The notes under the pieces are model-generated. The model made no database searches. It was not told the DNA's origin and saw only the letters and a list, made by a program, of their open reading frames with translations. 64,000 nt of DNA, from assembly GCA_018713605.1 (NCBI GenBank), contig DVOM01000036.1:14268-78267 (forward strand). Direction: 5' to 3'. Source of the DNA: Candidatus Scatocola faecigallinarum (GTDB taxonomy: Bacteria > Pseudomonadota > Alphaproteobacteria > RF32 > CAG-239). Of the stretch, positions 1 through 47,696 are shown piece after piece. The translations under genes and the position numbers were made by a program. Every line of letters starts with the position of its first letter. Positions within the stretch are counted from its first letter, which is position 1.

Positions 1-1317
1 AAAATTGAATATACAGCCTTGGAAAATCTTAACCCTTATAAAGGAAATCCTAAGGTTCATGACGAGAAACAAATTCAGCAAATTGCTAAATCGATTGAAA
101 GATTTGGTTTTAATAATCCCATTTTGATTGATGAAAAATCAGAGGTAATTGCCGGTCATGGTCGTCTGTTGGCCGCAAGACTATTAAAACTGGAAACAGT
201 TCCGGTGGTTCGTCTTATACATCTTTCTGAAGCAGAAAAACGGGCTTATCGCATAGCGGACAATAAATTATCGGAGAATGGTCGATGGGATACGGATTTG
301 TTAAAGCTTGAATTTTCAGAAATTGAGAAACTGGCTCTAAATCTTGAAGACGAATTGAATCTTGATATTACCGGATTTGATTTCAAGGAAATAGACATTC
401 TTCTGGTTAAAGACAAGCCTAACGAAAAAGCGGATGAAAAACTTAATTCCGTTCCGTATGTGCCGGAAAATGAAATAGTCAGTCAACACGGCGATGTTTG
501 GCTTCTAGGAAAACACAAAATTATTTGCGGAGATTCGTTAAAAGAAGAAACATACCAGCGTTTGTTTGAAGACGTTAAAGCCAATATGGTCTTTACTGAC
601 CCGCCATTTAATGTGAAAATTCAAGGACATGTTTGCGGTGCTGGTCAGACAAAACATAACGAGTTTGCTTTTGCTTCCGGTGAGATGAATGAGGCCGAAT
701 TTATTTCGTTTTTGAAAACATCAATAGCGAATACAGCCAAATATTCTGCTGAAAATTCCATTCATTATGTTTGCATGGATTGGCGGCATATATACGAGCT
801 TCTTTCAGCGGCGAGGGATATCTATCCAAAAATGCTGAATATGGTGGTTTGGTGTAAGAAAAACGGCGGGATGGGAAGTTTTTACCGATCTCAGCATGAG
901 CTGATTTTCGTTTTTCAGAATGGCAAAGGTTCTCATGTTAATAATGTGGAATTAGGCAAACATGGGCGCTATCGAACGAATGTCTGGCATTATGCCGGCG
1001 TTAACAGTTTTGGTTCCGAACAGAAAAATCTCAAAATGCATCCAACCGTTAAACCTGTGGAATTAGTCCGCGATGCGATTTTGGATGCTTCTAAACGCGG
1101 CGATATTGTGCTGGACGCGTTTCTCGGCAGCGGAACAACGCTGATTGCGGTAGAAAAAGCTGGGCGTGTTTGTTATGGAATCGAATATGAGCCTTTGTAT
1201 ATCGACACGATTATCCGCCGATACCATGAACTGACCGGGAATTGGGCCATTCATCAAAGCTCGCAAAAATCATATGAACAATTACTGCAAGAAAAATTGG
1301 AGAAAAACAATGAGTGA
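1..1317 (+). CDS. ParB-like nuclease domain fused to a DNA N6-adenine/N4-cytosine methyltransferase; 5' end runs off the window
   Basis: The frame is open from base 1 (KIEYTALENLNPYKGNPKVH...), so the TTG at 19 is probably internal. N-terminal ParB/sulfiredoxin-like block (NPILIDEKSEVIAGHGRLLAA). Methylase catalytic motif 'FTDPPFN' and SAM-binding 'VLDAFLGSGTT'. This architecture is typical of phage or prophage orphan methylases. Confidence 0.85.
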   Translation, partial: KIEYTALENLNPYKGNPKVHDEKQIQQIAKSIERFGFNNPILIDEKSEVIAGHGRLLAARLLKLETVPVVRLIHLSEAEKRAYRIADNKLSENGRWDTDLLKLEFSEIEKLALNLEDELNLDITGFDFKEIDILLVKDKPNEKADEKLNSVPYVPENEIVSQHGDVWLLGKHKIICGDSLKEETYQRLFEDVKANMVFTDPPFNVKIQGHVCGAGQTKHNEFAFASGEMNEAEFISFLKTSIANTAKYSAENSIHYVCMDWRHIYELLSAARDIYPKMLNMVVWCKKNGGMGSFYRSQHELIFVFQNGKGSHVNNVELGKHGRYRTNVWHYAGVNSFGSEQKNLKMHPTVKPVELVRDAILDASKRGDIVLDAFLGSGTTLIAVEKAGRVCYGIEYEPLYIDTIIRRYHELTGNWAIHQSSQKSYEQLLQEKLEKNNE

Positions 1318-1681
1318 AAGCGGTTATAAAAACCCGCCCAAACATTCGCAATTTCCGAAAGGGTGTTCGGGTAATCCTGCCGGGAGACCGAAAGGAAGCA
1401 AAAACACGCTGAAACTTCTGGATGCTGTTTTGGAACAGAAAATCAAAATCCAGCAAGAGGGCAAAACCATCAGCATTACCAAAAAGCAGGCGATGCTGAT
1501 GCAATTGGTCAATGCTGCGGTAAAAGGCGAGATTAAGGCCATTGCGGCACTTTTCCCGTATATGATGCAGCTAGACATGAAAGAAGAACAATCCTTAGAA
1601 ACAAGCAAATTATCTCTAAAAGATGAGGAAATTTTACAACAATTTTTAGAAGAAAATAAACAGGAGAGTAAAAATGACTGA
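1310..1681 (+). CDS. DUF5681-like phage protein (the kind usually found just upstream of the large terminase; possible small-terminase role)
   Basis: 'MSESGYKNPPKHSQFPKGCSGNPAGRPKGSKN' matches the Gly/Pro/Lys-rich N-terminus I recall for DUF5681 proteins. The ATG at 1310 overlaps the methylase stop (1315-1317), and its own stop overlaps the terminase ATG at 1674. Confidence 0.6.
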   Translation: MSESGYKNPPKHSQFPKGCSGNPAGRPKGSKNTLKLLDAVLEQKIKIQQEGKTISITKKQAMLMQLVNAAVKGEIKAIAALFPYMMQLDMKEEQSLETSKLSLKDEEILQQFLEENKQESKND

Positions 1682-3239
1682 TAAAAATCAGGTTAAAAAT
1701 GCGATATTACGCAAAAGTTTTTCAAGCTTTGTATAGAAATGTTTTTATGAATTAAATCCTTCGGAGACATTTATAAAAGGCGCGTATATAGACTTATTAT
1801 GCGATCAAATCCAAAATATGATAGAGGGAAAAAATCAGAAACTGATAATCAATCTTCCCCCAAGATATTTAAAATCGGTTATATGTTCTATAGCTTTGCC
1901 CGCGTTTATTTTGGGGCATAATCCATCGACTAAAATTATGTGCATCAGCTATGGCGAGGAGTTGGCTTCCAAATTAGCGGCTGATTGTAAGAGCGTTATG
2001 GAGGCGGACTGGTATAAAGCGCTTTTTCCTGAGACGAGAATCCGGACAGATAAAAAATCTGTTATGGATTTTGAAACGACAAAACACGGCGGACGGTTTG
2101 CAACGACAATTTCAGGAGCAGTCACAGGCCGCGGCGCAGACTGGATTATTATAGATGATCCGCTAAAACCGGCTGATGCCCTTTCAGACGTGGTTAGGGA
2201 AAAAATTAATGAACTCTATGGAAATACTGTCAGTTCCAGACTGAATGATAAAAATACCGGGAGAATACTTGTAGTCATGCAGCGTTTGCATGCGCATGAT
2301 TTATCCGGTTTTTTGTTTGAGAACGATCCTGATTTTAAGTCTATCGTCTTGCCGCTAATTGCTGAAAAAGATGAAAAATGGCAAATAAAAAATCGTATTA
2401 CCAAAACGATAACGACATATGAGCGGAAAAAAGGAGAATTGCTGCATCCGGAACGCGAAGGCGAAAAAGTTGTAAACAGTTATCGCAATTCGATGAGCCC
2501 TTTTGTATTTTCTGCGCAGTATCAGCAGAATCCAATGCCTATCGGCAGCGGAATGATCAAACAGGAGTGGATGAAGTATTATCAAGCACTGCCATCAAGA
2601 TTAGATAAAATTATTTTATCGTGGGATACAGCGGCTAAGGCTATGGAAAATAATGCTTATTCTGCCTGCGCGGTTGTCGGAATCGGAAATGAAAATGGTC
2701 AGAAATATTATCTGATAGAGGTGTTTCGCGGCAGACTTAATTTTCCTGAATTAACAAAAAAGGTTCAAGAAATGTCTGATAAATATGAAAGAATTGCGCA
2801 GGGGCGGACTATAACTTTGATTGAAGACGCCTCATCCGGAACTTCTTTATATCAAACGTTGAAAGGCAGAATTGCAAGCCTGAAGTCTGTTTTTTGCAAA
2901 GGTTCTAAGGAGCAGCGCTTTAATATTGTCGCGTTAAAAACCGAGCAAGGGGACTTGTTGTTTCCGGGAAAATATGAATCCTGGTTCACAAATTTTGAAG
3001 ATGAGTTCTTAACTTTTCCGAATTCTTTATTCAAGGATCAATGTGACGCATTGAGCCAAGCCCTGAATTATGGTTTGGAAAATTATAATCAGGTTTCGCA
3101 AAATATGCCGTTGGCCGCCCGCGTGGATACGATGTGCGGTATGGGCGGTTATAATACCGGCATAGAGGAACTCTATAGCATGAATAATATACCATATAAA
3201 TCTAATGGAGGCTATGCTTGGTGGAATGGTAAATCTTAA
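1674..3239 (+). pseudogene. terL: Phage terminase large subunit interrupted by an in-frame TAG at 1734-1736 (the uninterrupted ORF is 1818..3239)
   Basis: Walker-B-like 'DWIIIDDPLKP' and the nuclease-half motif 'ILSWDTA'. The sequence upstream of the listed ORF, in the same frame, reads MTDKNQVKNAILRKSFSSFV*KCFYELNPSETFIKGAYIDLLCDQIQNMIEGKNQKLIINLPPRYLKS. This is the conserved terminase N-terminus broken by one TAG. Confidence 0.8.
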
Positions 3240-3245
3240 GACGTT

Positions 3246-3578
3246 TTACTTGGCGATTATTTCAAAATTGTCAATCAGCTTTAGCAGAGATTCCTTTTGA
3301 GAATCAGTCATAAGGTTGAGTTTGCGGATGATTTTGTCTTTCACGTCCTGCTGCGATATATCTTCTTTCAAATCTTTGGTAATATCAATGTCCAAAGCGA
3401 AAAGCAGTTTGTACAGCGAGTAGGAGCGCGGATTTTGCTTTTGATTCTCAATTAAGTTAATAGACGAATAATCCATACCGCTCAGCTCGGACAATTTTTC
3501 ACTGGAAATTTTGCCGGCTAATCGTCTTTTTCGAATAGAATCGCTGATAAGCCTTAAAAACTCTTTTTCATTAAGCAT
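3246..3578 (-). CDS. XRE-family helix-turn-helix transcriptional regulator (CI-like, no peptidase domain)
   Basis: HTH_3-like segment 'KISSEKLSELSGMDYSSINLIENQKQNP'. It is divergent from the 3700-6503 operon across an AT-rich region with promoter-like hexamers. Confidence 0.75.
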   Translation of the reverse strand: MLNEKEFLRLISDSIRKRRLAGKISSEKLSELSGMDYSSINLIENQKQNPRSYSLYKLLFALDIDITKDLKEDISQQDVKDKIIRKLNLMTDSQKESLLKLIDNFEIIAK

Positions 3579-3699
3579 GCTTCACCCCTTAAAAATATAT
3601 TGGGATGATACAATAGCTTTTTTGATAAAAGTATTGCGATAAAACAATATAATTTTATTGACTAAACAAAATAATTAAATCAACATAAGGAGAAAGAAA

Positions 3700-3993
3700 A
3701 TGGCGTTAGTTTACGTTACGGACATTGAATATCAGGCAGATATAAAAGTATTTGCCGTTAATGAGAGGTATCAGGCTGATTTATGTTTTTTCGAGGTTGA
3801 TCGAGATTACAAGGCCAATACGGAGGCAAAATGGTTTTTTGAAGATAAGGACTATAAAGCGACGGTTAAAATATATTGGGTTGAACATGAGTATCAGGCA
3901 GATCTTAAAGTCTTCCGTGTTACGCAGGAACACCTAGCCGGTTGGCAAAAGAGCCACCGTTTGATTACGAGATTGGGAAAATACACATATTAA
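3700..3993 (+). CDS. Small internally repetitive protein ((E/D)Y(Q/K)A(D/N/T)-type repeats; DUF6150-like from memory)
   Basis: Five roughly 13-aa repeats: DIEYQADIKVFAV / NERYQADLCFFEV / DRDYKANTEAKWFFE / DKDYKATVKIYWV / EHEYQADLKVFRV. A strong RBS (AAGGAGAAAG) lies just upstream of the ATG. Confidence 0.6.
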   Translation: MALVYVTDIEYQADIKVFAVNERYQADLCFFEVDRDYKANTEAKWFFEDKDYKATVKIYWVEHEYQADLKVFRVTQEHLAGWQKSHRLITRLGKYTY

Positions 3994-4005
3994 AGGAGAT
4001 AAAAA

Positions 4006-4254
4006 ATGACAGAGGAAGTTAAAAAAGAAACCCCAAAAACAAAATTGCCCGGCTTGCCGCCGTTGGCTGCGTTTATTTATGCGGTTCTCATTTTTATTAT
4101 GACCATGGGGTACCTTAAGGTATTTCTTATCATGGGTTTAAGGATGAATCCTGATGAAGCCGGAATATTGTCATTTTTTGCGGGAGCCTTTTTTGCCTAT
4201 ATCGGCAACAAAGGAGTTAGAGCCATGTTTAAGTTGAGAGAACTGTTGAAATAA
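4006..4254 (+). CDS. Small membrane protein (two predicted TM helices)
   Basis: Hydrophobic stretches LPPLAAFIYAVLIFIMTMGYL and ILSFFAGAFFAYIG. RBS AAGGAG upstream. Tightly packed within the operon. Confidence 0.5.
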   Translation: MTEEVKKETPKTKLPGLPPLAAFIYAVLIFIMTMGYLKVFLIMGLRMNPDEAGILSFFAGAFFAYIGNKGVRAMFKLRELLK

Positions 4255-4257
4255 AGG

Positions 4258-5079
4258 ATGCAGATTATGGTTAGGATATTACGCGCGGCAACTTGGAACT
4301 TTGGCTACGGTTCTGTTGGTTCACCCAGCAAGAATAACAAGACGAAAGTTCAAAAAGCCCTTGAATATCTGCGGAAAAATAATGTGGATATTGTTTTGGC
4401 GCAGGAAATTTTTGAACCAAGCGAGTTGCGGCGTCTTTATCCTAACCAGATTTATTCTGACATTCCCGTTTATAATCCGCAGGGGCAAGGATTATGGGGC
4501 GCGATGGATTTTTCGATCGATACACGCAATAACAATAGCCGCCCTAAATGGGGAACGGCGATATTGGCTGCCGAGAATGTCAATTTGAACAAAATTGAGT
4601 TAAAATATAGCACGGCCTATCCGGGAAGCATGACTGTTGCACAGATTGCAGGAATGGACATTGCCGTTATTTCCATGTATGGCAAAAATGTCTGCGATTA
4701 TGATAAAGTAACGGCTTTTTCGTATCTGGCCAATCTGCATCGCTGTTTATCCGATACTGCGCCGCTGCTGGACGGTTTTTCTTCTGCCAAAAGATTTATT
4801 ATTGCCGGCGATTGGAATGCCGGGCCGCAATGGGATAAGGAGAAGTCGCGCAAGAATTTTAACTTTTTTGAGCGGTTAGCAACCTTTGATCTTAAGGATT
4901 GTTTGAGGCATTTTCCTGACGGCGGTTATGAAACAACATTTAAACATAACGGGAATCGACAGATAGACTGGATGTTTGCCAGCCAGACGTTTACCGCCCA
5001 TAATCCGCATGTTGATTATGCGGCGGAGATTGAGGATTTGTCTGATCATTACCCGATAATTGCGGAATTTGAGATATGA
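4258..5079 (+). CDS. Endonuclease/exonuclease/phosphatase (EEP) family protein
   Basis: 'ATWNFG' near the N-terminus, 'IAGDWNAG', and the C-terminal 'SDHYPIIAEFEI'. These are the characteristic EEP (DNase I / AP-endonuclease fold) catalytic blocks. No signal peptide. Confidence 0.8.
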   Translation: MQIMVRILRAATWNFGYGSVGSPSKNNKTKVQKALEYLRKNNVDIVLAQEIFEPSELRRLYPNQIYSDIPVYNPQGQGLWGAMDFSIDTRNNNSRPKWGTAILAAENVNLNKIELKYSTAYPGSMTVAQIAGMDIAVISMYGKNVCDYDKVTAFSYLANLHRCLSDTAPLLDGFSSAKRFIIAGDWNAGPQWDKEKSRKNFNFFERLATFDLKDCLRHFPDGGYETTFKHNGNRQIDWMFASQTFTAHNPHVDYAAEIEDLSDHYPIIAEFEI

Positions 5080-5507
5080 AAAAGGGTAATGTAATGTTTT
5101 GGAAATTCTTATTTTTAGGCTTTATTGTATGTTTTTCTGTTCAAGCACAGGAAAAAGCCAATAGTACCAGCGAACAAAATGATTATGGTATCTTTATTAT
5201 CGGTGTTGCGATTTATTTACTTTTTAAAGCAGTGGGGGTTATCTGGCATTATCGCTGTCCGAAATGCAAAAAATGGTGGGTAATGCGACAGGAAAAGAAA
5301 GAACTGCTGAATACGGATGTTATGACCGAATCCAGAAAAGAAGAAATAAAAGACAATAACGGAAATGTGCTGCGGGTAGAGGAAGTAAAGGTTCCTGTAT
5401 TGGTTCATCATTATGAAATTTGGCGAAAATGTAAGCATTGCGGACATCTTGTTAAGATTTTTGAAGACGAGAAGGAAGAAAAATATAACAGAACAACGCT
5501 TAAATAA
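5076..5507 (+). CDS. Membrane-anchored zinc-ribbon protein
   Basis: N-terminal signal/TM segment plus a second TM segment, then two CxxC pairs (CPKCKKWW ... CKHCGH). The start overlaps the stop of the EEP gene (ATGA). Confidence 0.5.
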   Translation: MKKGNVMFWKFLFLGFIVCFSVQAQEKANSTSEQNDYGIFIIGVAIYLLFKAVGVIWHYRCPKCKKWWVMRQEKKELLNTDVMTESRKEEIKDNNGNVLRVEEVKVPVLVHHYEIWRKCKHCGHLVKIFEDEKEEKYNRTTLK

Positions 5508-5522
5508 TGAGAGGAAACAGAT

Positions 5523-6503
5523 ATGCGGAAAATTAGTTGGCTGGCGATTTTGTTGATAGGCGGATGTACTCTGATAGTAGAACAGAGTAATCTTGTTTCC
5601 TTAAATGATTCTTCAGAATTCCGCCTTCTGAATGAACAGGTATTCATACGCTCGTGCCGTCAGCTTAAGGAAGAAAGTTATGATATTTTCTATGCGGCGG
5701 AAAATCAAAAATGTCTGGAAGAGAATGCCAAGCAAATGCAAAAGCTGTCCGAACAGATTGAGCAGACGAATGATTTAATTAAGAAAGAGAAACTTCTTGA
5801 TGATGTATTGGTAAGTTCTGAAAAGTTTGATGCCTGTAAAATATCTAAGGGGTTAACTGTTGCCGGTTTTGCTGAACAATCTAATGATAGCGCTGTTACA
5901 TACTGGAAGCGTGATAAAATAATCGCTTATTTTACCCAAGTCTATCAGATTTGTGAAAACGGAGAATATTTTGATAAGAATGACGGAAACCGTATTGTTG
6001 CGGATTATCAAACTGTGGCGCGGCAAAAAGAGAAAAATACGCCGAAGATAGAAAAATTTAAGGAATTAAAAAGCGAAATTTCCTCTCAAAATCAGATGAA
6101 TAAAAAGATTGCGGCGCTTTTAGTCGAGGACAATCCGATTATAAGAAAAATGCAACAGGCGGCTCCGGATTTTATGCGGGTAAAGGTTAATAAATGTCCG
6201 ATTATCTTTTTTGTCCAGTTTCTTATAGAAGATGCGGCAAAGTTTAATTCTGATTTTGCCTTTACTGACAACTATCAGTTTATGAAAAAAGGCGCAGACA
6301 CGCTTGTTTTGACTGTCGGCGATATTGAATATACTTTCCTGAAAAAAGGAAAAAACAGCGCGGATGTCATCGTTGTCAAAGATGTTGACCAATGGGGCAA
6401 TCAAATAATCAATAAAAGCACTATTCTAAATAACATTGATGTTTCCTCATCGTGCTGGGGGTATGTGAGACATCGAGGAAGAGCAAATTATAATTTCTAT
6501 TAG
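5523..6503 (+). CDS. Putative lipoprotein, function unknown
   Basis: Lipobox-like 'AILLIGGC' at the N-terminus. Last gene of the 3700-6503 co-directional cluster. Confidence 0.5.
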   Translation: MRKISWLAILLIGGCTLIVEQSNLVSLNDSSEFRLLNEQVFIRSCRQLKEESYDIFYAAENQKCLEENAKQMQKLSEQIEQTNDLIKKEKLLDDVLVSSEKFDACKISKGLTVAGFAEQSNDSAVTYWKRDKIIAYFTQVYQICENGEYFDKNDGNRIVADYQTVARQKEKNTPKIEKFKELKSEISSQNQMNKKIAALLVEDNPIIRKMQQAAPDFMRVKVNKCPIIFFVQFLIEDAAKFNSDFAFTDNYQFMKKGADTLVLTVGDIEYTFLKKGKNSADVIVVKDVDQWGNQIINKSTILNNIDVSSSCWGYVRHRGRANYNFY

Positions 6504-6931
6504 TGCCTTCCCAAAAAGATATTTGGTGATAAAATTTAATTTTATTACTGTGAAAACATATATGTTTTTTTGTAAATTAGAAACCTTATCAATTTATTGC
6601 AATATTAAACAGTTTTTTGTATTTATTTAATAAATCCTGACAATCATCATCACAAATATCTGCATTTAGCTTTTTTTACTTCTAATTAATGTGTCTTTTG
6701 GCATCATGGATGATTTCTTTCTATGTTACAGTCTGTAATATAATTTCCATTGAATTTTTCTTCTAGGTATCCTTCTTGGGTAAATTTGGATCTAATAATA
6801 TTTGAAATTTGACTAGAGGGCAAACAATATTGTTATAAACAATCCTCCATTTCTCTGAATATGCTCTCTTATTATAATCTTGTTTTCATATTATTAATTT
6901 AAAATACTTTCAAAACTAATTTTTTAACGTA

Positions 6932-6977
6932 TTGACATTGAAATAAAAAACATATATTAATTTACCAAATAGGTAAA
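6932..6977 (+). promoter_or_regulatory. Predicted sigma70-type promoter plus inverted-repeat operator of the higB-like operon
   Basis: TTGACA (6932-6937), a 17-nt spacer, TATTAA (6955-6960), then the inverted repeat TTTACC-aaata-GGTAAA (6961-6977). This all lies 20 nt upstream of the GTG at 6997. Confidence 0.5.
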
Positions 6978-6996
6978 TTTTAAGAGAATAACTATA

Positions 6997-7320
6997 GTGA
7001 AATTAATAATAGATAATGGACGCTTAATAAAGCAATTAAGCGATGAGAAGAACTCAAAAAAGGCTTTTGGGGAATTGTCTGACTCTGTATATAGGAGAAT
7101 CCAATATCTAGAAGCAGCAGAAACTCTTGCAGATGTTTCGCATCTTCCTCCTCATAGAAGACATGTATTGACGGGGAAATATAAAGGGTGCTTTGCAATT
7201 TGTGTTGACAAGCGGCTTAGAATAATTTTTAAGCCAAACGAGGATGGTAATAACGATATTTCAAATTTATCCAACATAAGAGAAGTATGCATAATTGCAA
7301 TTGAGGACTATCATGACTGA
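6997..7320 (+). CDS. higB: HigB-family (COG3549 'killer protein') type II toxin
   Basis: The overall pattern and the C-terminal '...IIAIEDYHD' parallel Proteus vulgaris HigB (...LNYEDYH). 'HVLTGKYKGCFAICVDKRLRIIF' corresponds to 'HPLKGDREGYWSITVRANWRITF'. Confidence 0.75.
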   Translation: MKLIIDNGRLIKQLSDEKNSKKAFGELSDSVYRRIQYLEAAETLADVSHLPPHRRHVLTGKYKGCFAICVDKRLRIIFKPNEDGNNDISNLSNIREVCIIAIEDYHD

Positions 7321-8443
7321 GATGGAAAAGAAAATGAGCAACAACCCAAAAATTATATATGAAGGTATTCCATATTTTCATCCAGGACTGTTATTGAAGG
7401 AAATCTTGGAGGCTAGAGGTATTGAGCAAAAAGATTTTGCACAAAGAACGGGATTTACAGAAAAACATATATCCTATGTATTAACCGGTAAATCAGATAT
7501 TACTCCATCTTTTGCTGAAAAATTGGCGATAACCTTAGAAGAATCTGCTAATACGTGGATGAATTTGCAGTCTAAATTTGATGTAATAAAAAAAGAAGTC
7601 GAGTTAGCGGAAGAATTAAAAGATCATGTTAAATTGCTTAAAGATTTTCCTATCAAGGATATGGTAAAGAATAGGTTAATTGCTCCAGTAAAAGAGCCAT
7701 GGAAACAAGTAAGAGAGCTTATGTCGTTTTTTGCTGTGGGAGACATAACAAAACTAAAACAATTTTCAATTAACAACTACTCTGTTAGATATAGGGCATT
7801 AAATACAGGCGAAACATCCGAAGCTAAAGCTGTTCTATTTAGATGGGGAGAGAAGATTGCTATTGGACGAGAAACTCCACCACCCTATAAAAAAGAACTA
7901 TTAGAACAGGCTGTAATAAATATTCGGAATAACATGTTATTATCTTTCGCAGACGCCTTAGAGTATATAAAAGAAGAACTTAAAAAAGCAGGTGTTATAT
8001 TCATATTTACCCCAAAAATTAGCAATGCACCTGCTTCCGGATATAGTTATAGGTATAAAAGTAATCCTGTTATTCTTATAACCTACCGAAATCGGCAAAT
8101 TGATACTTTTTGGTTTTCTTTATTCCATGAAATATATCATATATTAAATGGTGATCTTGATATGGAAGAAAGTAAAGAAATGGAAATTGCTGCAAATAAG
8201 TATGCAAAAAATACTATTATTCCTTTAAAAGATTGGGTTCTTTTCTGGGCTGGCAATTCCAGGAATATTACAGAAGAAAAGATATTAACTTTATCGTCTA
8301 AGTTTAATGTTCCTAAAGCAAGTATTATAGGACGGCTTCAGGTGGAAAAATTTATTAAACAATGTGATTTTTTATACTTAAAAGAAAAAATGGATATTAA
8401 AACATTTGATGGAATAATATTTGAAGAGGAGAATATTTTATGA
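7313..8443 (+). CDS. HigA-type HTH antitoxin fused to an ImmA/IrrE (COG2856) zinc metallopeptidase domain
   Basis: N-terminus 'FHPGLLLKEILEARGIEQKDFAQRTGFTEKHISYVLTGKSDITPSFAEKLAITLEESANTWMNLQ' is a HigA (COG3093) signature. The C-terminal half carries the HExxH motif 'LFHEIYHILNGD'. The ATG at 7313 overlaps the higB stop. Confidence 0.8.
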   Translation: MTEMEKKMSNNPKIIYEGIPYFHPGLLLKEILEARGIEQKDFAQRTGFTEKHISYVLTGKSDITPSFAEKLAITLEESANTWMNLQSKFDVIKKEVELAEELKDHVKLLKDFPIKDMVKNRLIAPVKEPWKQVRELMSFFAVGDITKLKQFSINNYSVRYRALNTGETSEAKAVLFRWGEKIAIGRETPPPYKKELLEQAVINIRNNMLLSFADALEYIKEELKKAGVIFIFTPKISNAPASGYSYRYKSNPVILITYRNRQIDTFWFSLFHEIYHILNGDLDMEESKEMEIAANKYAKNTIIPLKDWVLFWAGNSRNITEEKILTLSSKFNVPKASIIGRLQVEKFIKQCDFLYLKEKMDIKTFDGIIFEEENIL

Positions 8444-9591
8444 CAGAATATGTTTTTTACTATCCAATTTTAAAATGGAAGCAAGGAGAATACAAAGCTC
8501 TTCATAGTCTAAACCCACAAATAAAAGATCGTATTTGTCCAATTATTGAGATAACACCTATAGGTTATGATCCTGAAAGTAAAGAAAATAGAATAACAAT
8601 AGATGAACATATAAAAGACATTGGTATAAGGCTGCGAAAATATTGGGAAGATAGAACATCTTTTATTGATACTATAAAATTAGATGCACCAGAAGAACAA
8701 AAACCTGCATATGTAAATAAAATTTTTGATAATTGTTTTAATTCTTTTTGCAGAGTTATTCCAGTTGTTCACTTGAAAGATAGTGATCAATTATTGAAAA
8801 CATATAAAGAAATCATAAAAAAACATAGATATGGCTGTATGCTAAGGGTAAATATGAATGAAATTGCGGATGATATAGCAGATAAAGTGAGAGCAATTTT
8901 AGAGAAACTTGATACTAATGCTACAGAAACATACTTATTAGCTGATTTTGATGTTATCAAAATTGGTGACGATGAAGTTTATGATATTTATTCTGAGCAA
9001 TTATGCAAAATATTTAATATTTTTGATTGGCATACAACAATAATTGCAGGATCCTCTTTCCCAGAAGAAATGACAGATGGAACTCTCAATAATAGATATG
9101 AGTGGAATTTATATGACAATTTTCTGAAGAAGTTTGCGATAACATCTAAAGAACCTAAATTTTCTGATTATTATATTTTAAATCCTGAGCATTCTTTTCC
9201 TCATGATGGAAAAATAATTAAGCCGAAAGCTAAATTACGTTATACCACAAATAATGGATGGTATTTTAATAAAATTCCTCCAAAATCAAAAAGAAATAAA
9301 GATATAGATGAAGTGGGTAAAGAATTAACAGAAGGAGAAAAATATAAATTTCTGTGTAAAGATTTAATAGCTAACTCTATTTTTAGAGGACCCTCATTTT
9401 CAAAAGGTGATGAATACATATATAAACAAGCAACAGATCCAAAAGCTAAAGGAGGAAATGCATCAATCTGGGTGGAAGCTTCTACTAATCAACACCTTAC
9501 CAAGGTCGTAAATGATTTGTCCAAGCTTCTCGGTTTTTCATTGCGTTGCGAACAAGGTCTTTTAGGTCTTTTAGAGAGAACTCTTGAGTAA
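8440..9591 (+). CDS. Beta-protein (PF14350)/sce7725-like family protein, function unknown
   Basis: The N-terminus 'YYPILKWKQGEYKALHSL' matches my recollection of the YxPxLKxKxGExxAL signature of this family. ATGA overlap with the upstream ImmA-fusion gene. Confidence 0.55.
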   Translation: MTEYVFYYPILKWKQGEYKALHSLNPQIKDRICPIIEITPIGYDPESKENRITIDEHIKDIGIRLRKYWEDRTSFIDTIKLDAPEEQKPAYVNKIFDNCFNSFCRVIPVVHLKDSDQLLKTYKEIIKKHRYGCMLRVNMNEIADDIADKVRAILEKLDTNATETYLLADFDVIKIGDDEVYDIYSEQLCKIFNIFDWHTTIIAGSSFPEEMTDGTLNNRYEWNLYDNFLKKFAITSKEPKFSDYYILNPEHSFPHDGKIIKPKAKLRYTTNNGWYFNKIPPKSKRNKDIDEVGKELTEGEKYKFLCKDLIANSIFRGPSFSKGDEYIYKQATDPKAKGGNASIWVEASTNQHLTKVVNDLSKLLGFSLRCEQGLLGLLERTLE

Positions 9592-10096
9592 GACGTGTAT
9601 AAAGTTCTTCTTTGTTTTTACGTAATTCTTTGGATGGGATCCCTTTAGAATGAAGCAAATTTATAACCTCATCTTTCCACAAAAGCTGTACTAGTGAATG
9701 AGAATCAACATTCTTATTTAGTTTACCTTTTCTATATTGTTTAAATTTTATAGTTCTGTTTTTTGTGTGTTTAACAAGTTGTATTTCCCACCAATCAGGT
9801 ATTATTTCTAAAGCCTTTTGAAGATGATTTTCTCCAACTACTAGTGTAGCTTTATCCAAAATTTTACTATAAACTTTTTCTTGATAAGGTAATCTATCTA
9901 GAGTATCCGCTTCGCTTTTTATTTCGTATCCATGAAGAGATCCATTTACAACAGCAATATCAACTCTGCATGCTCCCTGTAATAATCCTAATTCATTGAG
10001 CACAATAGTATCAAAAGCATCTTCATGTTTTTTCAGAATATTATTATACAGACTCTTCCTTATATCTGAATCTTTAAGTAAATCGCGATTCATCAA
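9497..10096 (-). CDS. sce7726/MmcB-like PD-(D/E)xK nuclease-fold protein
   Basis: 'NELGLLQGACRVDIAVVNGSLHGYEIKSEADTLDR' gives an E...D-x12-ExK arrangement typical of restriction-endonuclease-fold proteins. It is convergent with the Beta-like gene and overlaps it by 95 nt. Confidence 0.55.
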   Translation of the reverse strand: MMNRDLLKDSDIRKSLYNNILKKHEDAFDTIVLNELGLLQGACRVDIAVVNGSLHGYEIKSEADTLDRLPYQEKVYSKILDKATLVVGENHLQKALEIIPDWWEIQLVKHTKNRTIKFKQYRKGKLNKNVDSHSLVQLLWKDEVINLLHSKGIPSKELRKNKEELYTRLTQEFSLKDLKDLVRNAMKNREAWTNHLRPW

Positions 10097-10154
10097 TTAA
10101 AGCCCCAAGCATTTAAAAGTTAAAATTTAGTTAACAAATTATATTTTATATAGT

Positions 10155-10685
10155 ATGTTAAATCAACTTAATAAAGATTATATTAACAAATTTCCTTTTT
10201 ATTTGACAGAAATAATGACTAAATGGGATGAAGTAGGAATAATATTTGTGATTAAAATTATAGATTTTGATCTTTCTCTAAGTTTTCAGCGTTTTCCTGA
10301 AGGATACAGAGATGATCAATCTGAATTTGTAGAACTTAAAGGTGAAATCGTTTTTTCAAGCACAAAAAATTATCTCAAAGGAACTCATGTTCCTATTTAC
10401 GCTTTTACAAAATTTGAACATCCCAATCCTTCTGATCCAAGTGTTTTTGAGTTTAAATATTCTGGAAGACAAAGAATATACGACGATGCGCCGTTGGCTG
10501 GCGCTTTTGATGGAAAATATGCACACATCTCTGTAAATGATCGATTTTTACAAACATTGTGCTTTATAAAACAATTAAATAAGGATGCTTATTTAGCATT
10601 TAATTGTGTTCGTAAAAAATATCAAAAACCATGTATTAAAAGTTACACTCTAAGTACAGAATTCAATCTTGAAGATTATGAGTAA
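10155..10685 (+). CDS. Hypothetical protein
   Basis: A 176-aa ORF in the AT-rich island with no motif I recognise. It is the only long ORF in this interval apart from a short ORF (10342..10536) nested in another frame. Confidence 0.4.
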   Translation: MLNQLNKDYINKFPFYLTEIMTKWDEVGIIFVIKIIDFDLSLSFQRFPEGYRDDQSEFVELKGEIVFSSTKNYLKGTHVPIYAFTKFEHPNPSDPSVFEFKYSGRQRIYDDAPLAGAFDGKYAHISVNDRFLQTLCFIKQLNKDAYLAFNCVRKKYQKPCIKSYTLSTEFNLEDYE

Positions 10686-11038
10686 CTATTTTTAGAAATA
10701 TTAATAGATAAAATCCCTGTTCTTTGATCAAAATATCCCTGATAAATTTATGGGTAGTTAGGTGCTATTCAAGTAAATCTGCATATTTGTGGGAATTTTG
10801 CATGTAAAATCCACCCAAATTTCCCTGTAGATTCCCTGTTATTAGAAAATGGGTAATGATGTATTTGTGATTCAGGAGTCGAAAAGATTGGTGGTCAACA
10901 AAATTTATTGGCGTTATATTGGAAATTGAGTTGAACAATATTGTGTTTAACCATAAATAGCGGATATTTGTTTAATTTTATTTGATTCTTTTAAGTATCT
11001 TGGTACTCTGAAAATATAGGTTTATAGGGTAAGTTAAG

Positions 11039-12478
11039 ATGCTGGAACGAATTAGAAATCTTTTACAACAAGGCGAAGGTCTCAAGGTCGAATTTAAGGA
11101 AGCCCAAGGTGGTATGCCGAAAAGTCTCTATGCGACGGTATGTGCATTTTCCAATACGCAAGGGGGCGAAATACTTTTGGGTATCGCAGATAATGGCCAA
11201 GCTTTAGGTATTGCACCGAATAAGGTGGCTCAATATAAAAAGGATTTTGTTAATACAATAAATGATTCTGGTAAAAATTGTCCGCCTCTATATTTATCTA
11301 TTGATACTGTAGAAATTGATGGAAAAATAATTCTATATGTTAATGTTCCACAAAGTTCAGAAGTTCAACGTTGTGACGGAAAAATTTATATCCGCAATGA
11401 AGATGGTGATTTTGATATAACACACCAACAAAATCGTGTTGCTAATTTGTATGCTCGTAAACAGAATACATATTCTGAAAGTAAAATTTATAAGAATGTT
11501 GCATTAACAGATTTAAGATTGGATTTGATCGCTCGCGCGAGAAAATTGGCTGTTATTCGGCAACCTGGACACCCATGGACAGAACTGAACGATTTGGAAT
11601 TATTGAAAAGCTCTGGATTATATAAAAAGGATTATATTTCCGGTGAAGAAGGCATAACGTTGGCAGGAATTCTACTACTCGGTAAAGATGATGTTATAAA
11701 ATCTGTACTTCCTCATTTTAAAACTGATCTAATTATTAGAGTAAAAGATTCATCTCGTTATGATGATAGAGATGACGTTAGGACGAATCTTATAGAAAGT
11801 TATGACCATATCATGGATTTTGTTAATAAACACCTCCCATCACCTTTTTACTTAGAAGGATCTGTAAGAGTAGATGTACGAAATGTTATATTTCGAGAAA
11901 TAGCTGCTAATTTATTAATTCATAGAGAATATAACAGCCATTTTCCAGGAAGGTTTGTTATTGAGAAAGATAAAATTTTTACAGAAAATGGAAATAAACC
12001 ATATATTCATGGAAATATTAATCCTGAGCTAAGTGTTCCATACCCTAAAAACCCAACGATTGCTAAGTTCTTTAAGGAAATTGGCTTAGCAGAAGAGTTG
12101 GGCTCCGGGGTTAGGAATCTTGTAAAATATTCAAAGTTTTATGCTGGATATATTCCTGTTTTAACGGATACAGAGATTTTTAGATTAGATTGGAAAATTA
12201 ACTTATTTGATGAAAAAGAACAAGATGTTGTAGAGATTAGTGATCAAGTTAGTGATCAAGTTAGTGATCAAGTTAGTGATCAAGTTAACAAGATTCTTGA
12301 GTTTTGTTTGTCACCGCGTTCATTAGTTGAAATTATGGCGCAAACAAAATATGCAAGTAGAGTGCACTTTAGTAATAAGATATTAAAGCCTTTAATTAAG
12401 AAAGGATTAATTAAACAAACTGCACCAAATAAACCGAATAGTCCTAATCAAAAATACGTTACGGTAATTAAAGAATGA
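11039..12478 (+). CDS. AlbA_2 (Schlafen-like 'divergent AAA') / HATPase_c_4 / C-terminal wHTH protein
   Basis: The N-terminus 'EGLKVEFKEAQGGMPKSLYATVCAFSNTQGGEILLGIADNG' is the classic AlbA_2 signature. Mid-region motifs 'REIAANLLIHREY' and 'AEELGSGVRN' fit HATPase_c_4. The C-terminal 'LKPLIKKGLIKQT' looks like a winged helix. Confidence 0.75.
   Translation: MLERIRNLLQQGEGLKVEFKEAQGGMPKSLYATVCAFSNTQGGEILLGIADNGQALGIAPNKVAQYKKDFVNTINDSGKNCPPLYLSIDTVEIDGKIILYVNVPQSSEVQRCDGKIYIRNEDGDFDITHQQNRVANLYARKQNTYSESKIYKNVALTDLRLDLIARARKLAVIRQPGHPWTELNDLELLKSSGLYKKDYISGEEGITLAGILLLGKDDVIKSVLPHFKTDLIIRVKDSSRYDDRDDVRTNLIESYDHIMDFVNKHLPSPFYLEGSVRVDVRNVIFREIAANLLIHREYNSHFPGRFVIEKDKIFTENGNKPYIHGNINPELSVPYPKNPTIAKFFKEIGLAEELGSGVRNLVKYSKFYAGYIPVLTDTEIFRLDWKINLFDEKEQDVVEISDQVSDQVSDQVSDQVNKILEFCLSPRSLVEIMAQTKYASRVHFSNKILKPLIKKGLIKQTAPNKPNSPNQKYVTVIKE
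12239..12286 (+). repeat. Perfect 12-bp tandem repeat (AGTGATCAAGTT x4) encoding SDQV x4 inside the AlbA_2 gene
   Basis: Read directly: agtgatcaagtt repeated four times head to tail, in frame, in the linker before the C-terminal wHTH. Confidence 0.95.
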
Positions 12479-12596
12479 AGGTTAAACCATCTTGTTAAGG
12501 CTTAACTTGTGACCTTTTATCTCTGTGACCGTGATAATATTTTCTATTCTTTTCTTTAGTATGCTCAATACCGTTGAAGTTTACTATTCCGCCATT

Positions 12597-12632
12597 AAAC
12601 AGAAAGCCCTGCATTTGCAGGGCTTTCTGTTT
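12597..12632. terminator. Bidirectional intrinsic terminator at the island/core junction
   Basis: Perfect palindrome aaACAGAAAGCCCTGCAttTGCAGGGCTTTCTGTtt flanked by A/T runs. It lies between the convergent AlbA_2 gene (+) and the flavodoxin gene (-). Confidence 0.8.
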
Positions 12633-46895: not shown

Positions 46896-47156
46896 TCAGA
46901 CCGTTTTTTCGTCCTTTTCGGGGTTGAAATCAAAGCGCCAGCCGTAAAAATCTATCAGCGCCAGCAAATCGCCCCATGCAACGTTGCCTTTGCCGATTTC
47001 TATCCGGTCGATTACTTCCGCTTTAAGGCCTGTACGGCGGGCGACGTATTCCAAGGTCAGCTGCTGGTCGTGCCGCCGGGCAAAGAGTTGCAGACCCAGG
47101 CGGCGGCGCAGAATGCGGCGCGGGTTTTCCGTACGCGGGTTGTATTCAAATGACAT
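46896..47156 (-). CDS. Small XRE-family HTH protein
   Basis: 'QLTLEYVARRTGLKAEVIDRIEIGKGN'. RBS AAGGAG at 47171-47166. Confidence 0.7.
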   Translation of the reverse strand: MSFEYNPRTENPRRILRRRLGLQLFARRHDQQLTLEYVARRTGLKAEVIDRIEIGKGNVAWGDLLALIDFYGWRFDFNPEKDEKTV

Positions 47157-47186
47157 GATGTCCGACTCCTTCTAATGTTTTGTCGT

Positions 47187-47363
47187 AAAACAAAACCACC
47201 TTACTTTGAGTAAGGTGGGAGGAGTTCGAAGCTGCAAATAGACAGTGTGCTGATTCGTCCGCAAAGCGGCTTATATCGCACCATCCTCCCTTACAGGAGG
47301 TTATTACGGTTCTATTTGATGAGCTTCGACACTCCGTTATCAGCTTAACCGTTTCTGATAACA
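47187..47363 (-). ncRNA. Candidate structured RNA (cis-regulatory leader or sRNA) with its own promoter and intrinsic terminator
   Basis: On the minus strand: TTGCAA (47397-47392), a 16-nt spacer, TATAAT (47375-47370). A multi-helix RNA follows. P1 is CACTCC-T-GTTATCAG/CTGATAAC-GGAGTG. P2 is TCGAAGCT/AGCTTCGA. P3 is AAATAGA/TCTATTT. P4 is CCTCC/GGAGG. P5 is GCCGC/GCGGC. It ends in the terminator CCACCTTAC-tcaaa-GTAAGGTGG-TTTTGTTTT (47218-47187), 30 nt before the XRE ATG. Confidence 0.55.
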
Positions 47364-47414
47364 GGAGTGATTATAGAGGCAAAATTCTATTTTGCAACGA
47401 AGAAATTCCGGCGG

Positions 47415-47696
47415 TCAGTCGACGATAATTTCGGGTTTGGTATCTTTGCCGAAGCACATGCGCCTGTCGATACCGCGGGTTTGGCAGTCGAGTGTACGGT
47501 CGCTGTCCGGCAGGTCGTCGGCATTGCCGAGGTTGTACATGTCCTGCTCAAAAAGTTCGTCAAGTTCCGGAACGGTGTCAATCAGCCGTTCTTCGCGCAG
47601 AGTTTTAACCTCAAAGTCCTTTTCGTCGTCGGGGGTAAAATTCTGGTCGGAGTAGTCGCGGACTTTTACCGGTTCGTTAATTTTTCCCGTAATCAT
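47415..47696 (-). CDS. Hypothetical acidic protein
   Basis: A 93-aa ORF rich in D/E. No family recognised. It lies 23 nt downstream of the pirin gene on the same strand. Confidence 0.4.
   Translation of the reverse strand: MITGKINEPVKVRDYSDQNFTPDDEKDFEVKTLREERLIDTVPELDELFEQDMYNLGNADDLPDSDRTLDCQTRGIDRRMCFGKDTKPEIIVD

Follow-up and report, generated by a model that had tools for sequence, protein, structure and literature searches.

The subject of this analysis is a short segment of a 64,000-nucleotide stretch of Candidatus Scatocola faecigallinarum DNA (contig DVOM01000036.1; 'the window' hereafter means the whole of that stretch), in which, on the minus strand, a promoter is followed by a structured RNA of ~176 nucleotides (nt), an intrinsic terminator and a small gene for a regulator of the XRE class. 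The RNA belongs to a real and uncatalogued family of highly structured RNAs of about this length, present in multiple copies per genome in human-gut Alphaproteobacteria. Moreover, RNA and XRE gene are linked one to one, in an obligatory manner, and the sensor-like domain of the RNA is structurally independent of the terminator, with no competitive antiterminator. In other words, this is a new RNA family of a known general kind, what is unusual about it being the strict pairing with XRE paralogues and an allelic dimorphism of the RNA itself. With regard to function, the preferred reading, held tentatively and at a little short of an even chance, is that of an RNA-plus-XRE cassette: the majority of transcripts would end at the terminator and give a stable RNA, and the XRE protein would be made from read-through only.

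The transcription unit starts with a σ70-type promoter at 47397..47370, consisting of a -35 hexamer TTGCAA (47397..47392), a 16-nt spacer and a -10 hexamer TATAAT (47375..47370). A promoter scan scores it at 10 of 12 consensus positions, in agreement with a preliminary description of this DNA, which had called it near-consensus; it is kept across all homologous copies, with an A-rich tract upstream. Seven nucleotides past the -10 hexamer lies a G (47362) that is nearly invariant in the family alignment and that, from standard promoter geometry, is the likely start of transcription. The pyrimidine-rich stretch CACTCCT (47363..47369), which lies at a fixed position between the -10 hexamer and this G, is thus probably outside the transcript.

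The RNA that would follow is unusually well paired, as had been proposed. The 193 nt after the -10 hexamer fold at -72.7 kcal/mol, against -44.3 ± 4.0 kcal/mol for shuffled sequences (z = -7.0), none of 200 shuffles being as stable, and the 176-nt RNA counted from the likely start folds at -70.5 kcal/mol (z = -7.2). The opposite strand is about equally foldable, as is expected of any set of helices; the strand is fixed instead by the promoter, the U-tract and the pattern of wobble pairs in the family, in which 130 G:U pairs stand against eight A:C pairs. This excess indicates that the folded strand is the one read from the predicted promoter.

In the consensus fold the 5′ end of the RNA is probably formed by the P1 hairpin (47336..47362; GTTATCAG(A)/(G)CTGATAAC, 9 bp), whose loop carries an invariant GGUUA. 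It is followed by the 5′ strand of a long closing helix (47311..47335), made up in the RNAalifold consensus of GGAGU (P2ext), TCGAAGCT (P2) and CAAATAGA (P2a). The 3′ strand of the same helix lies at 47221..47246, where the joining segment J4/2a (ACTG) leads into TCTATTTG, C, AGCTTCGA and ACTCC. In the family consensus GGAGU (47335..47331) pairs with ACUCC (47225..47221) and runs on into P2 and P2a, giving a closing helix of ~21 bp that encloses two further hairpins, P3 and P4, and so forms a three-way junction. The junction strand J2a/3 (ACCGTAATAA, 47301..47310) is variable in length, with a conserved (U)AA at its 3′ end. P3 (47285..47300; CCTCC-TGTAAG-GGAGG) has an invariant stem sequence and a variable loop. 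P4 (47247..47281) consists of a GTGC/GCAC helix around a conserved 8 × 8 internal loop (GAUAUAAG / ACGAAUNA), closed by an apical CCG/CGG with a variable loop.

The closing helix shares no nucleotides with the terminator, from which it is separated by 1 nt. An anti-Shine-Dalgarno-like CUCCUCC run and the terminator together occupy 47187..47220, the hairpin itself spanning 47219..47187, with the stem CCACCTTAC/GTAAGGTGG, the loop TCAAA and the U-tract TTTTGTTTT at 47195..47187. In isolation the hairpin has a predicted stability of -14.6 kcal/mol, and the terminator plus GGTTTTGTTT is found in every complete copy. A short leader follows (47157..47176), in which AGGAGTTGAAC or AGGAGTCGGAC is kept across paralogues and which contains the ribosome-binding site (RBS) AAGGAG at 47170..47165. 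The XRE gene (46896..47156, minus strand, 86 amino acids (aa)) is monocistronic and has its ATG at 47156, 30 nt past the terminator end at 47187, so that terminator, RBS and gene are all placed as in the preliminary description. A promoter scan between terminator and ATG found no internal promoter.

Evidence that the RNA is a family comes from 81 homologous copies, 16 of them in five gut alphaproteobacterial metagenome-assembled genomes (MAGs) and 65 in gut metagenomes, which together comprise 52 distinct sequences. The genomic copies were found by a scan with the pattern GGAGGATGGTNCGATATAAG, which gave 16 true copies, with 5, 3, 4, 3 and 1 found per MAG, in assemblies named as uncultured Alphaproteobacteria or proteobacterium. 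The metagenomic copies, almost all from human gut, were found with a second, non-overlapping pattern, and each pattern block is conserved in the set retrieved by the other (mean column identity 0.97 and 0.87), such that the conservation is no artefact of ascertainment. The XRE protein itself had few relatives at first search, all metagenomic. One relative, 70% identical, lies on a contig (L001) whose RNA has diverged: P1, P2 and P2a are altered on both strands, while promoter, terminator and RBS remain almost unchanged.

The stems are supported by compensatory changes. From 16 distinct sequences RNAalifold derived a consensus of 49 pairs, and 23 of these show such changes. In a covariance-model alignment of the 52 distinct sequences, 94.9% of the cells are paired, against 83.4% in shuffles and 37–47% in slid controls; double-sided changes occur in 26 of the 49 pairs, and compensated cells number 326, against 97 ± 9 in shuffles. 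By helix, compensation is seen in seven of nine pairs of P1, seven of eight of P2a, three of four each of P4 and P4b, and, as double changes, in five of the 13 pairs of P2ext and P2 combined. In P3 none of the five pairs ever varies across the 52 sequences. Also conserved are the P1-loop GGUUA and the P4 internal loop, the latter also in the sets that were not selected by the P4 loop. The (U)AA of J2a/3, together with the CC that opens P3, reads (U)AACC and is complementary to the P1 loop; the two could pair in place of the pseudoknot discussed below, GGUUA:UAACC being pairable in 98% of cases and invariant.

In light of the family, several helices proposed in the preliminary description can be reassessed. 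The long-range helix TCGAAGCT/AGCTTCGA, stacked on AAATAGA/TCTATTT, is present and covaries in relatives. Of the 14-bp hairpin placed at the 5′ end, the lower six pairs (CACTCC/GGAGTG) turn out to be specific to the window: their pairing in the family is no better than in slid controls, and their 5′ arm probably lies upstream of the transcription start. As for the two small hairpins said to be enclosed by the long helix, CCTCC/GGAGG is present and never varies, and GCCGC-ttt-GCGGC was misread, the actual sequence GCCGCTTTGCGGA giving a 4-bp CCGC/GCGG whose enclosing GTGC/GCAC helix had been overlooked. A pseudoknot ACGGTT:AACCGT can be drawn in the window; the AACCGT partner is absent from five of the 16 distinct aligned copies (L006, L009, L012, L014 and L018), and the proposal is therefore not retained.

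No known RNA class accounts for the family, in line with the earlier failure to assign one by eye. At gathering thresholds, Rfam 15 returned one tRNA elsewhere in the window and nothing at the RNA, and only tRNAs in the 16 MAG loci. In the 1-kb region around the RNA, at E ≤ 10, the sole match was sRNA-Xcc1 (RF02221; 20.9 bits against a gathering score of 53, E = 0.84), and ten further loci at E ≤ 5 gave no consistent match beyond the same weak one. This model is the only one to recur, matching three copies in the same segment (P3 3′ arm through terminator); its scores of 20.9, 26.9 and 23.0 bits fall well below the 53 needed (E = 0.5–4.5), and since it relies on a disfavoured alternative fold the match is treated as a chance resemblance. 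Searches of phage and plasmid collections by blastn, and of viral contigs with two independent patterns, gave no match, and a phage or plasmid origin was rejected. Between 46800 and 47800, Tandem Repeats Finder reported no tandem repeats and ARAGORN no tRNA- or tmRNA-like gene. According to the gut structured-RNA catalogue of Fremin and Bhatt, HTH_XRE is the commonest domain directly downstream of its candidates; within the 200 of its 408 supplementary files that were covered, neither an Azospirillum entry nor a matching sequence was found (PMC8040213).

The second element of the unit is the XRE gene. Its product in the window matches HTH_31 (E = 2.8e-8), and an AlphaFold model (pLDDT 77.8) shows it as a simple Cro-type fold. 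Among solved structures it comes closest to HipB antitoxins, pSK41 Cop, restriction-modification controller proteins and ClgR, a comparison that gives no sign of RNA binding; the modelled fold suggests that the protein is a DNA-binding regulator. In every copy with enough downstream sequence (~75), a small helix-turn-helix (HTH) gene of 75–107 aa lies on the same strand, 22–30 nt past the U-tract. The encoded proteins fall into at least seven subfamilies and are 17–48% identical to the window protein. In the converse direction, all 86 tblastn matches of the protein family carry the RNA upstream, within a sample that comprises fetched DNA only and is biased, most loci having been fetched via the RNA. 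With a profile search, 144 protein clusters were recovered, nearly all of gut-metagenomic origin; NCBI names one of them 'Azospirillum sp.'. An assignment to Alphaproteobacteria is consistent with a GcrA gene close to one of these loci. For one linked XRE protein alone, the contig collection lists 6211 indexed blocks.

In almost all loci the gene after XRE is convergent, and the flanks differ between copies, from which it follows that the unit consists of promoter, RNA, terminator and one small gene. Conservation extends over about -40 to +215, irrespective of which XRE subfamily follows. Inside one genome the promoter and leader are common to different XRE subfamilies, and the same subfamilies sometimes have different promoters: L017 and L018, for example, share a common promoter before different proteins, and L008 and L020 encode the same protein behind different promoters. 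This sharing of leaders within a genome argues for either concerted evolution of the leaders or a shared input.

Such an arrangement, in which a terminator stands between a strong promoter and its gene, has precedents. The PR′-tR′ unit of phage lambda, a strong constitutive promoter, gives rise to a terminated transcript of ~190 nt (the '6S' transcript), and expression of the downstream genes requires read-through, for which the Q protein must act on a DNA/RNA site close to the promoter. The cassette resembles this unit in having a short terminated transcript and downstream expression only past the terminator, and differs from it in having one small regulator gene downstream and in lying outside phage contexts. 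According to the preferred reading, the promoter, with its near-consensus hexamers and A-rich upstream tract, would fire strongly; transcription would begin, probably, at G47362, and the nascent RNA would fold into P1, the ~21-bp P2ext/P2/P2a helix and the three-way junction with P3 and P4. Since the folded domain does not overlap the terminator, the polymerase would be expected to halt by default at the U-tract (47195..47187), yielding an abundant and stable ~176-nt RNA; termination efficiency is presumably high. The XRE gene, which has no promoter of its own, would be translated solely from the minority of read-through transcripts, such that the terminator would fix a high ratio of RNA to protein from a single promoter, a setting of the ratio that may be likened to that of the lambda PR′-tR′ unit and of type III toxin-antitoxin (TA) loci (PMC3401426). 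The RNA domain, as the most constrained part of the unit, is probably a selected effector or binding platform, and its partner could be a protein, a small molecule or, via the CU-rich and GGUUA single strands, other RNAs.

There are several considerations which weigh against this reading. Where transcription starts, how efficient the terminator is and how stable the RNA is are all matters of prediction, and no trans target or partner of the RNA was identified. Three-way junctions whose junction and internal-loop nucleotides never vary are more typically met with in sensors that bind a ligand or a protein than in small RNAs (sRNAs) that simply base-pair. Moreover, a fixed place before one gene family is a hallmark of a cis-regulator, and read-through may well be regulated. 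Finally, a covarying pair next to GGAGGA:UCCUCC hints at a real alternative fold.

These points lead directly to the strongest of the alternatives, which is possible though on balance doubtful: a conditional attenuator, in which the three-way junction senses a small molecule (as an orphan riboswitch), a protein or an RNA factor, and binding alters passage through the terminator. All XRE paralogues of a genome would then respond jointly to one signal. As in terminating riboswitches and other 5′-leader attenuators, which also occur in several copies before related genes, a covarying domain is found in every case in the 5′ leader of one and the same gene family, with an intrinsic terminator directly after it and the controlled gene beyond; the covarying stems contrast with invariant junctions, P1 loop and P4 internal loop, as they do in aptamers; and the same promoter and leader before different XRE subfamilies of one genome makes a shared input plausible. 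The invariant stem sequence of P3 suggests, in addition, a second role for its bases, and GGAGGA:UCCUCC is pairable, with a seventh, adjoining pair that covaries. What such a switch lacks is a terminator/antiterminator pair of comparable stability. The mutually exclusive antiterminator of the preliminary description, in which the inner hairpin pairs with the 5′ arm of the terminator, fails on both energy and conservation: it costs +16 to +23 kcal/mol (+16.1 in nascent RNA without the terminator 3′ arm, +22.9 in the full window RNA), and its GTAAGG/CCTTAC portion is specific to the window, the family-conserved part amounting to GGAGGA:UCCUCC and the one covarying pair. Forcing this conserved pairing costs an average of +14.2 kcal/mol (from +7 to +31) and does not unpair the terminator 3′ arm. 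The terminator is in the minimum-energy fold of all 43 sequences tested, and in nascent RNAs cut before its 3′ arm (4 of the 43 shown) the sensor domain persists and the terminator 5′ arm is unpaired.

The covarying pair itself (GC in 22 sequences, UG in 20, UA in three and mismatched in seven) may merely track lineages and recombinant blocks, since its mismatches sit in mosaic copies. Furthermore, the ~21-bp closing helix is far stabler than the ligand-dependent P1 stems of riboswitches and does not overlap the terminator, so that the default state is termination rather than one arm of a balanced two-state switch. It would also be unusual for riboswitches to be confined to small XRE regulators, which are the only genes controlled here, and, unlike known terminating riboswitches, the RNA has no Rfam match. 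A different route to control, sequestration of the RBS in the read-through mRNA, was considered and rejected, as the probability that the Shine-Dalgarno sequence is unpaired ranges from 0.02 to 0.95, with no consistent partner.

An unlikely but more far-reaching proposal is that of a new two-component unit, in which one promoter and a leaky terminator deliver the structured RNA and the XRE protein in a fixed ratio, and the RNA either acts on or with the XRE paralogues, as decoy, antagonist or cofactor, or senses a gut signal that gates them all. If this were true, the two alleles of the RNA core described below would reflect selection on the RNA and not neutral gene conversion.

Still harder to sustain is a type III TA-like RNA–protein module, in which a leaky terminator gives an excess of RNA that serves as decoy, antagonist or cofactor of the HTH protein or its paralogues. 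In type III loci (toxIN, cptIN, tenpIN) how much RNA is made per protein transcript is determined by the terminator, upstream of which lie tandem nucleotide repeats (PMC3401426). The order of promoter, non-coding RNA, terminator and protein gene is the same here; RNA and protein are strictly co-inherited one to one; and there are several chromosomal copies with unrelated flanks. The likeness goes no further, however. The RNA is a single complex fold with no tandem repeats, and the protein has an ordinary XRE DNA-binding fold, not that of an endoribonuclease of the ToxN/CptN/TenpN or AbiQ type. The proteins have diverged (17–48% identity) while the RNAs within a genome are nearly the same, two RNA alleles accompany the same protein, which means that the stems hold no specificity code, and PADLOC gave no defence model above noise and no match for the window protein.

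Equally improbable is an independent trans-acting base-pairing sRNA, upstream of XRE genes by chance, of which the closest alphaproteobacterial analogues are the cuckoo, CcsR and αr14 RNAs: multicopy sRNAs with a CU-rich, anti-Shine-Dalgarno-like motif and a co-transcribed small protein gene (CcaF1) (PMC4615179, PMC8034643). The RNA shares with these its several copies, a CU-rich run (CUCCUCC, adjoining the terminator) and co-transcription with a small protein gene, and has its own strong promoter and a terminator with a long U-tail; however, an XRE linkage and spacing that are invariant in ~75 copies, with no separate XRE promoter, show that it is not independent of its neighbour. Cuckoo RNAs consist of 2–4 adjacent hairpins with CCUCCUCCC in each loop (PMC4615179), an architecture far simpler than the three-way junction found here, and they lie in the 3′ untranslated region of a DUF1127 gene rather than 5′ of an XRE gene. 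In the present RNA, moreover, CUCCUCC occurs once, outside loops, between the long helix and the terminator, its neighbour ACUCC is paired in the consensus fold, and Rfam gave no matches to the cuckoo, CcsR or αr14 families. A hidden small open reading frame (ORF) within the RNA can be dismissed, since the stem changes are compensatory and loop insertions and deletions break every reading frame.

Returning to the RNA-plus-XRE cassette, its significance depends on whether read-through is gated. If it is, the family would be an orphan riboswitch-like class set over a whole transcription-factor family; if not, it would be a new abundant structured RNA. The hosts are gut Alphaproteobacteria that turn up very commonly in human gut metagenomes and have hardly been studied, and a conserved fold with complete XRE linkage in such small genomes marks a regulatory layer specific to the clade. 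The covariance model and alignment provide a starting point for curation in Rfam.

The RNA core exists in two alleles. Contigs from other samples are syntenic with the window, with the pirin gene, a 93-aa ORF and the XRE gene 96–99.6% identical, the segment from -35 to -10 unchanged and the 34-nt terminator segment different at 2–3 positions (91–94% identical). Between these, the 142-nt core (47221..47362) is 99.3% identical in L057 and 65.5% identical, with 49 differences, in L030, L065, L063 and L069. Since L030 and L065, which by their flanks (99.5–99.6%) come closest of all the strains, nevertheless have the diverged core, the allele is independent of strain relatedness. The differences, which are compensated, fall within P1, P2, P2a and J2a/3; none affects P3, the P4 loop or GGUUA. 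Both alleles accompany the same XRE protein (coding sequences 98.5–99.6% identical in nucleotides), and among the contigs fetched for the window locus about twelve have one allele and nine the other. The pattern looks like replacement of a patch bounded by the conserved -10 hexamer and terminator, or like a maintained polymorphism. No donor copy carrying the stems of the diverged allele was found among the copies collected, and no second copy of the RNA was found in the 64-kb window.

Some contigs are mosaics of different RNA copies (L074, L035, L043, L044, L023, L070, L046 and L021), for example a window-type 5′ half joined to the 3′ half of another copy, or a window-type RNA joined to an XRE gene of the MATKN type. 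They may be real recombinants between paralogous leaders, or else chimeras that arose in assembly across a repeat. In two other contigs, L060 (1317..2204) and L041 (4947..5705), two complete RNA–XRE cassettes lie in tandem on the same strand, ~700 nt apart. Several database proteins (P0021, P0066, P0113 and P0115) have false N-terminal extensions that were translated through terminator and leader, as in …RTGYGFRKVVVM….

Two further features of the transcription unit deserve description. A second hairpin, which would form in read-through transcripts only (47177..47196), pairs the U-tract GUUUUGUU with the conserved GACAAAAC, its exact complement 4 nt downstream, through 8 bp around a UUAC loop; the region is also a DNA palindrome (GTTTTGTT-N4-GACAAAAC). 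The hairpin is predicted in all ten read-through RNAs folded, and CAAAAC is kept in nearly all copies. This hairpin or palindrome, lying between terminator and RBS, would account for the invariant G within the U-tract. At the other end of the unit, a perfect dyad, GCAAAAT-AGA-ATTTTGC (47395..47379), overlaps the -35 hexamer and the spacer and is the sole perfect match in the window. Similar GCAAA(A/T)..(A/T)TTTGC dyads occur in many paralogous promoters and do not track the XRE subfamily. Autoregulation specific to each paralogue through the dyad was rejected, promoter type being independent of XRE subfamily.

In the window the cassette is preceded by a 93-aa ORF and then a pirin gene, and followed by a convergent metallophosphoesterase gene. 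The ORF (47415..47696, minus strand) is acidic, lies directly upstream of the promoter and has a conserved synteny (L002, L003); it has no Pfam, NCBIfam or PADLOC match and was not found beside the other RNA copies. The MAGs that carry the RNA are labelled 'Azospirillum sp.' or uncultured Alphaproteobacteria, the longest contig seen being 1.89 Mb, with up to five copies found in one MAG. Many of the MAG cassettes are flanked by ~90-nt repeats (…GCCAGCTTGACCGCGGCA…GAACCATTGTTGAACCGCGATGCTTCC…GTGCATATCGTGAGATTGTGCC…) resembling repetitive extragenic palindromes or miniature inverted-repeat transposable elements, in both orientations and sometimes in tandem; at L004, L010, L011, L012, L015, L018 and L019 they lie at about -320..-40 and +500..+635 from the RNA start. 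As cassette boundaries they were rejected, since they are generic interspersed repeats of either orientation and the window copy has none beside it. Elsewhere in the window, positions 1..12600 form a low-GC island (GC 0.30–0.42, the rest being at ~0.50) that holds genes of a mobile- or defence-like kind: an N6/N4 DNA methylase, a terminase-like gene, Exo_endo_phos, HTH_3 plus Peptidase_M78 (ImmA/IrrE-like), a PF14350 'Beta protein' and a protein with Schlafen AlbA_2 and Fic-like_C domains.

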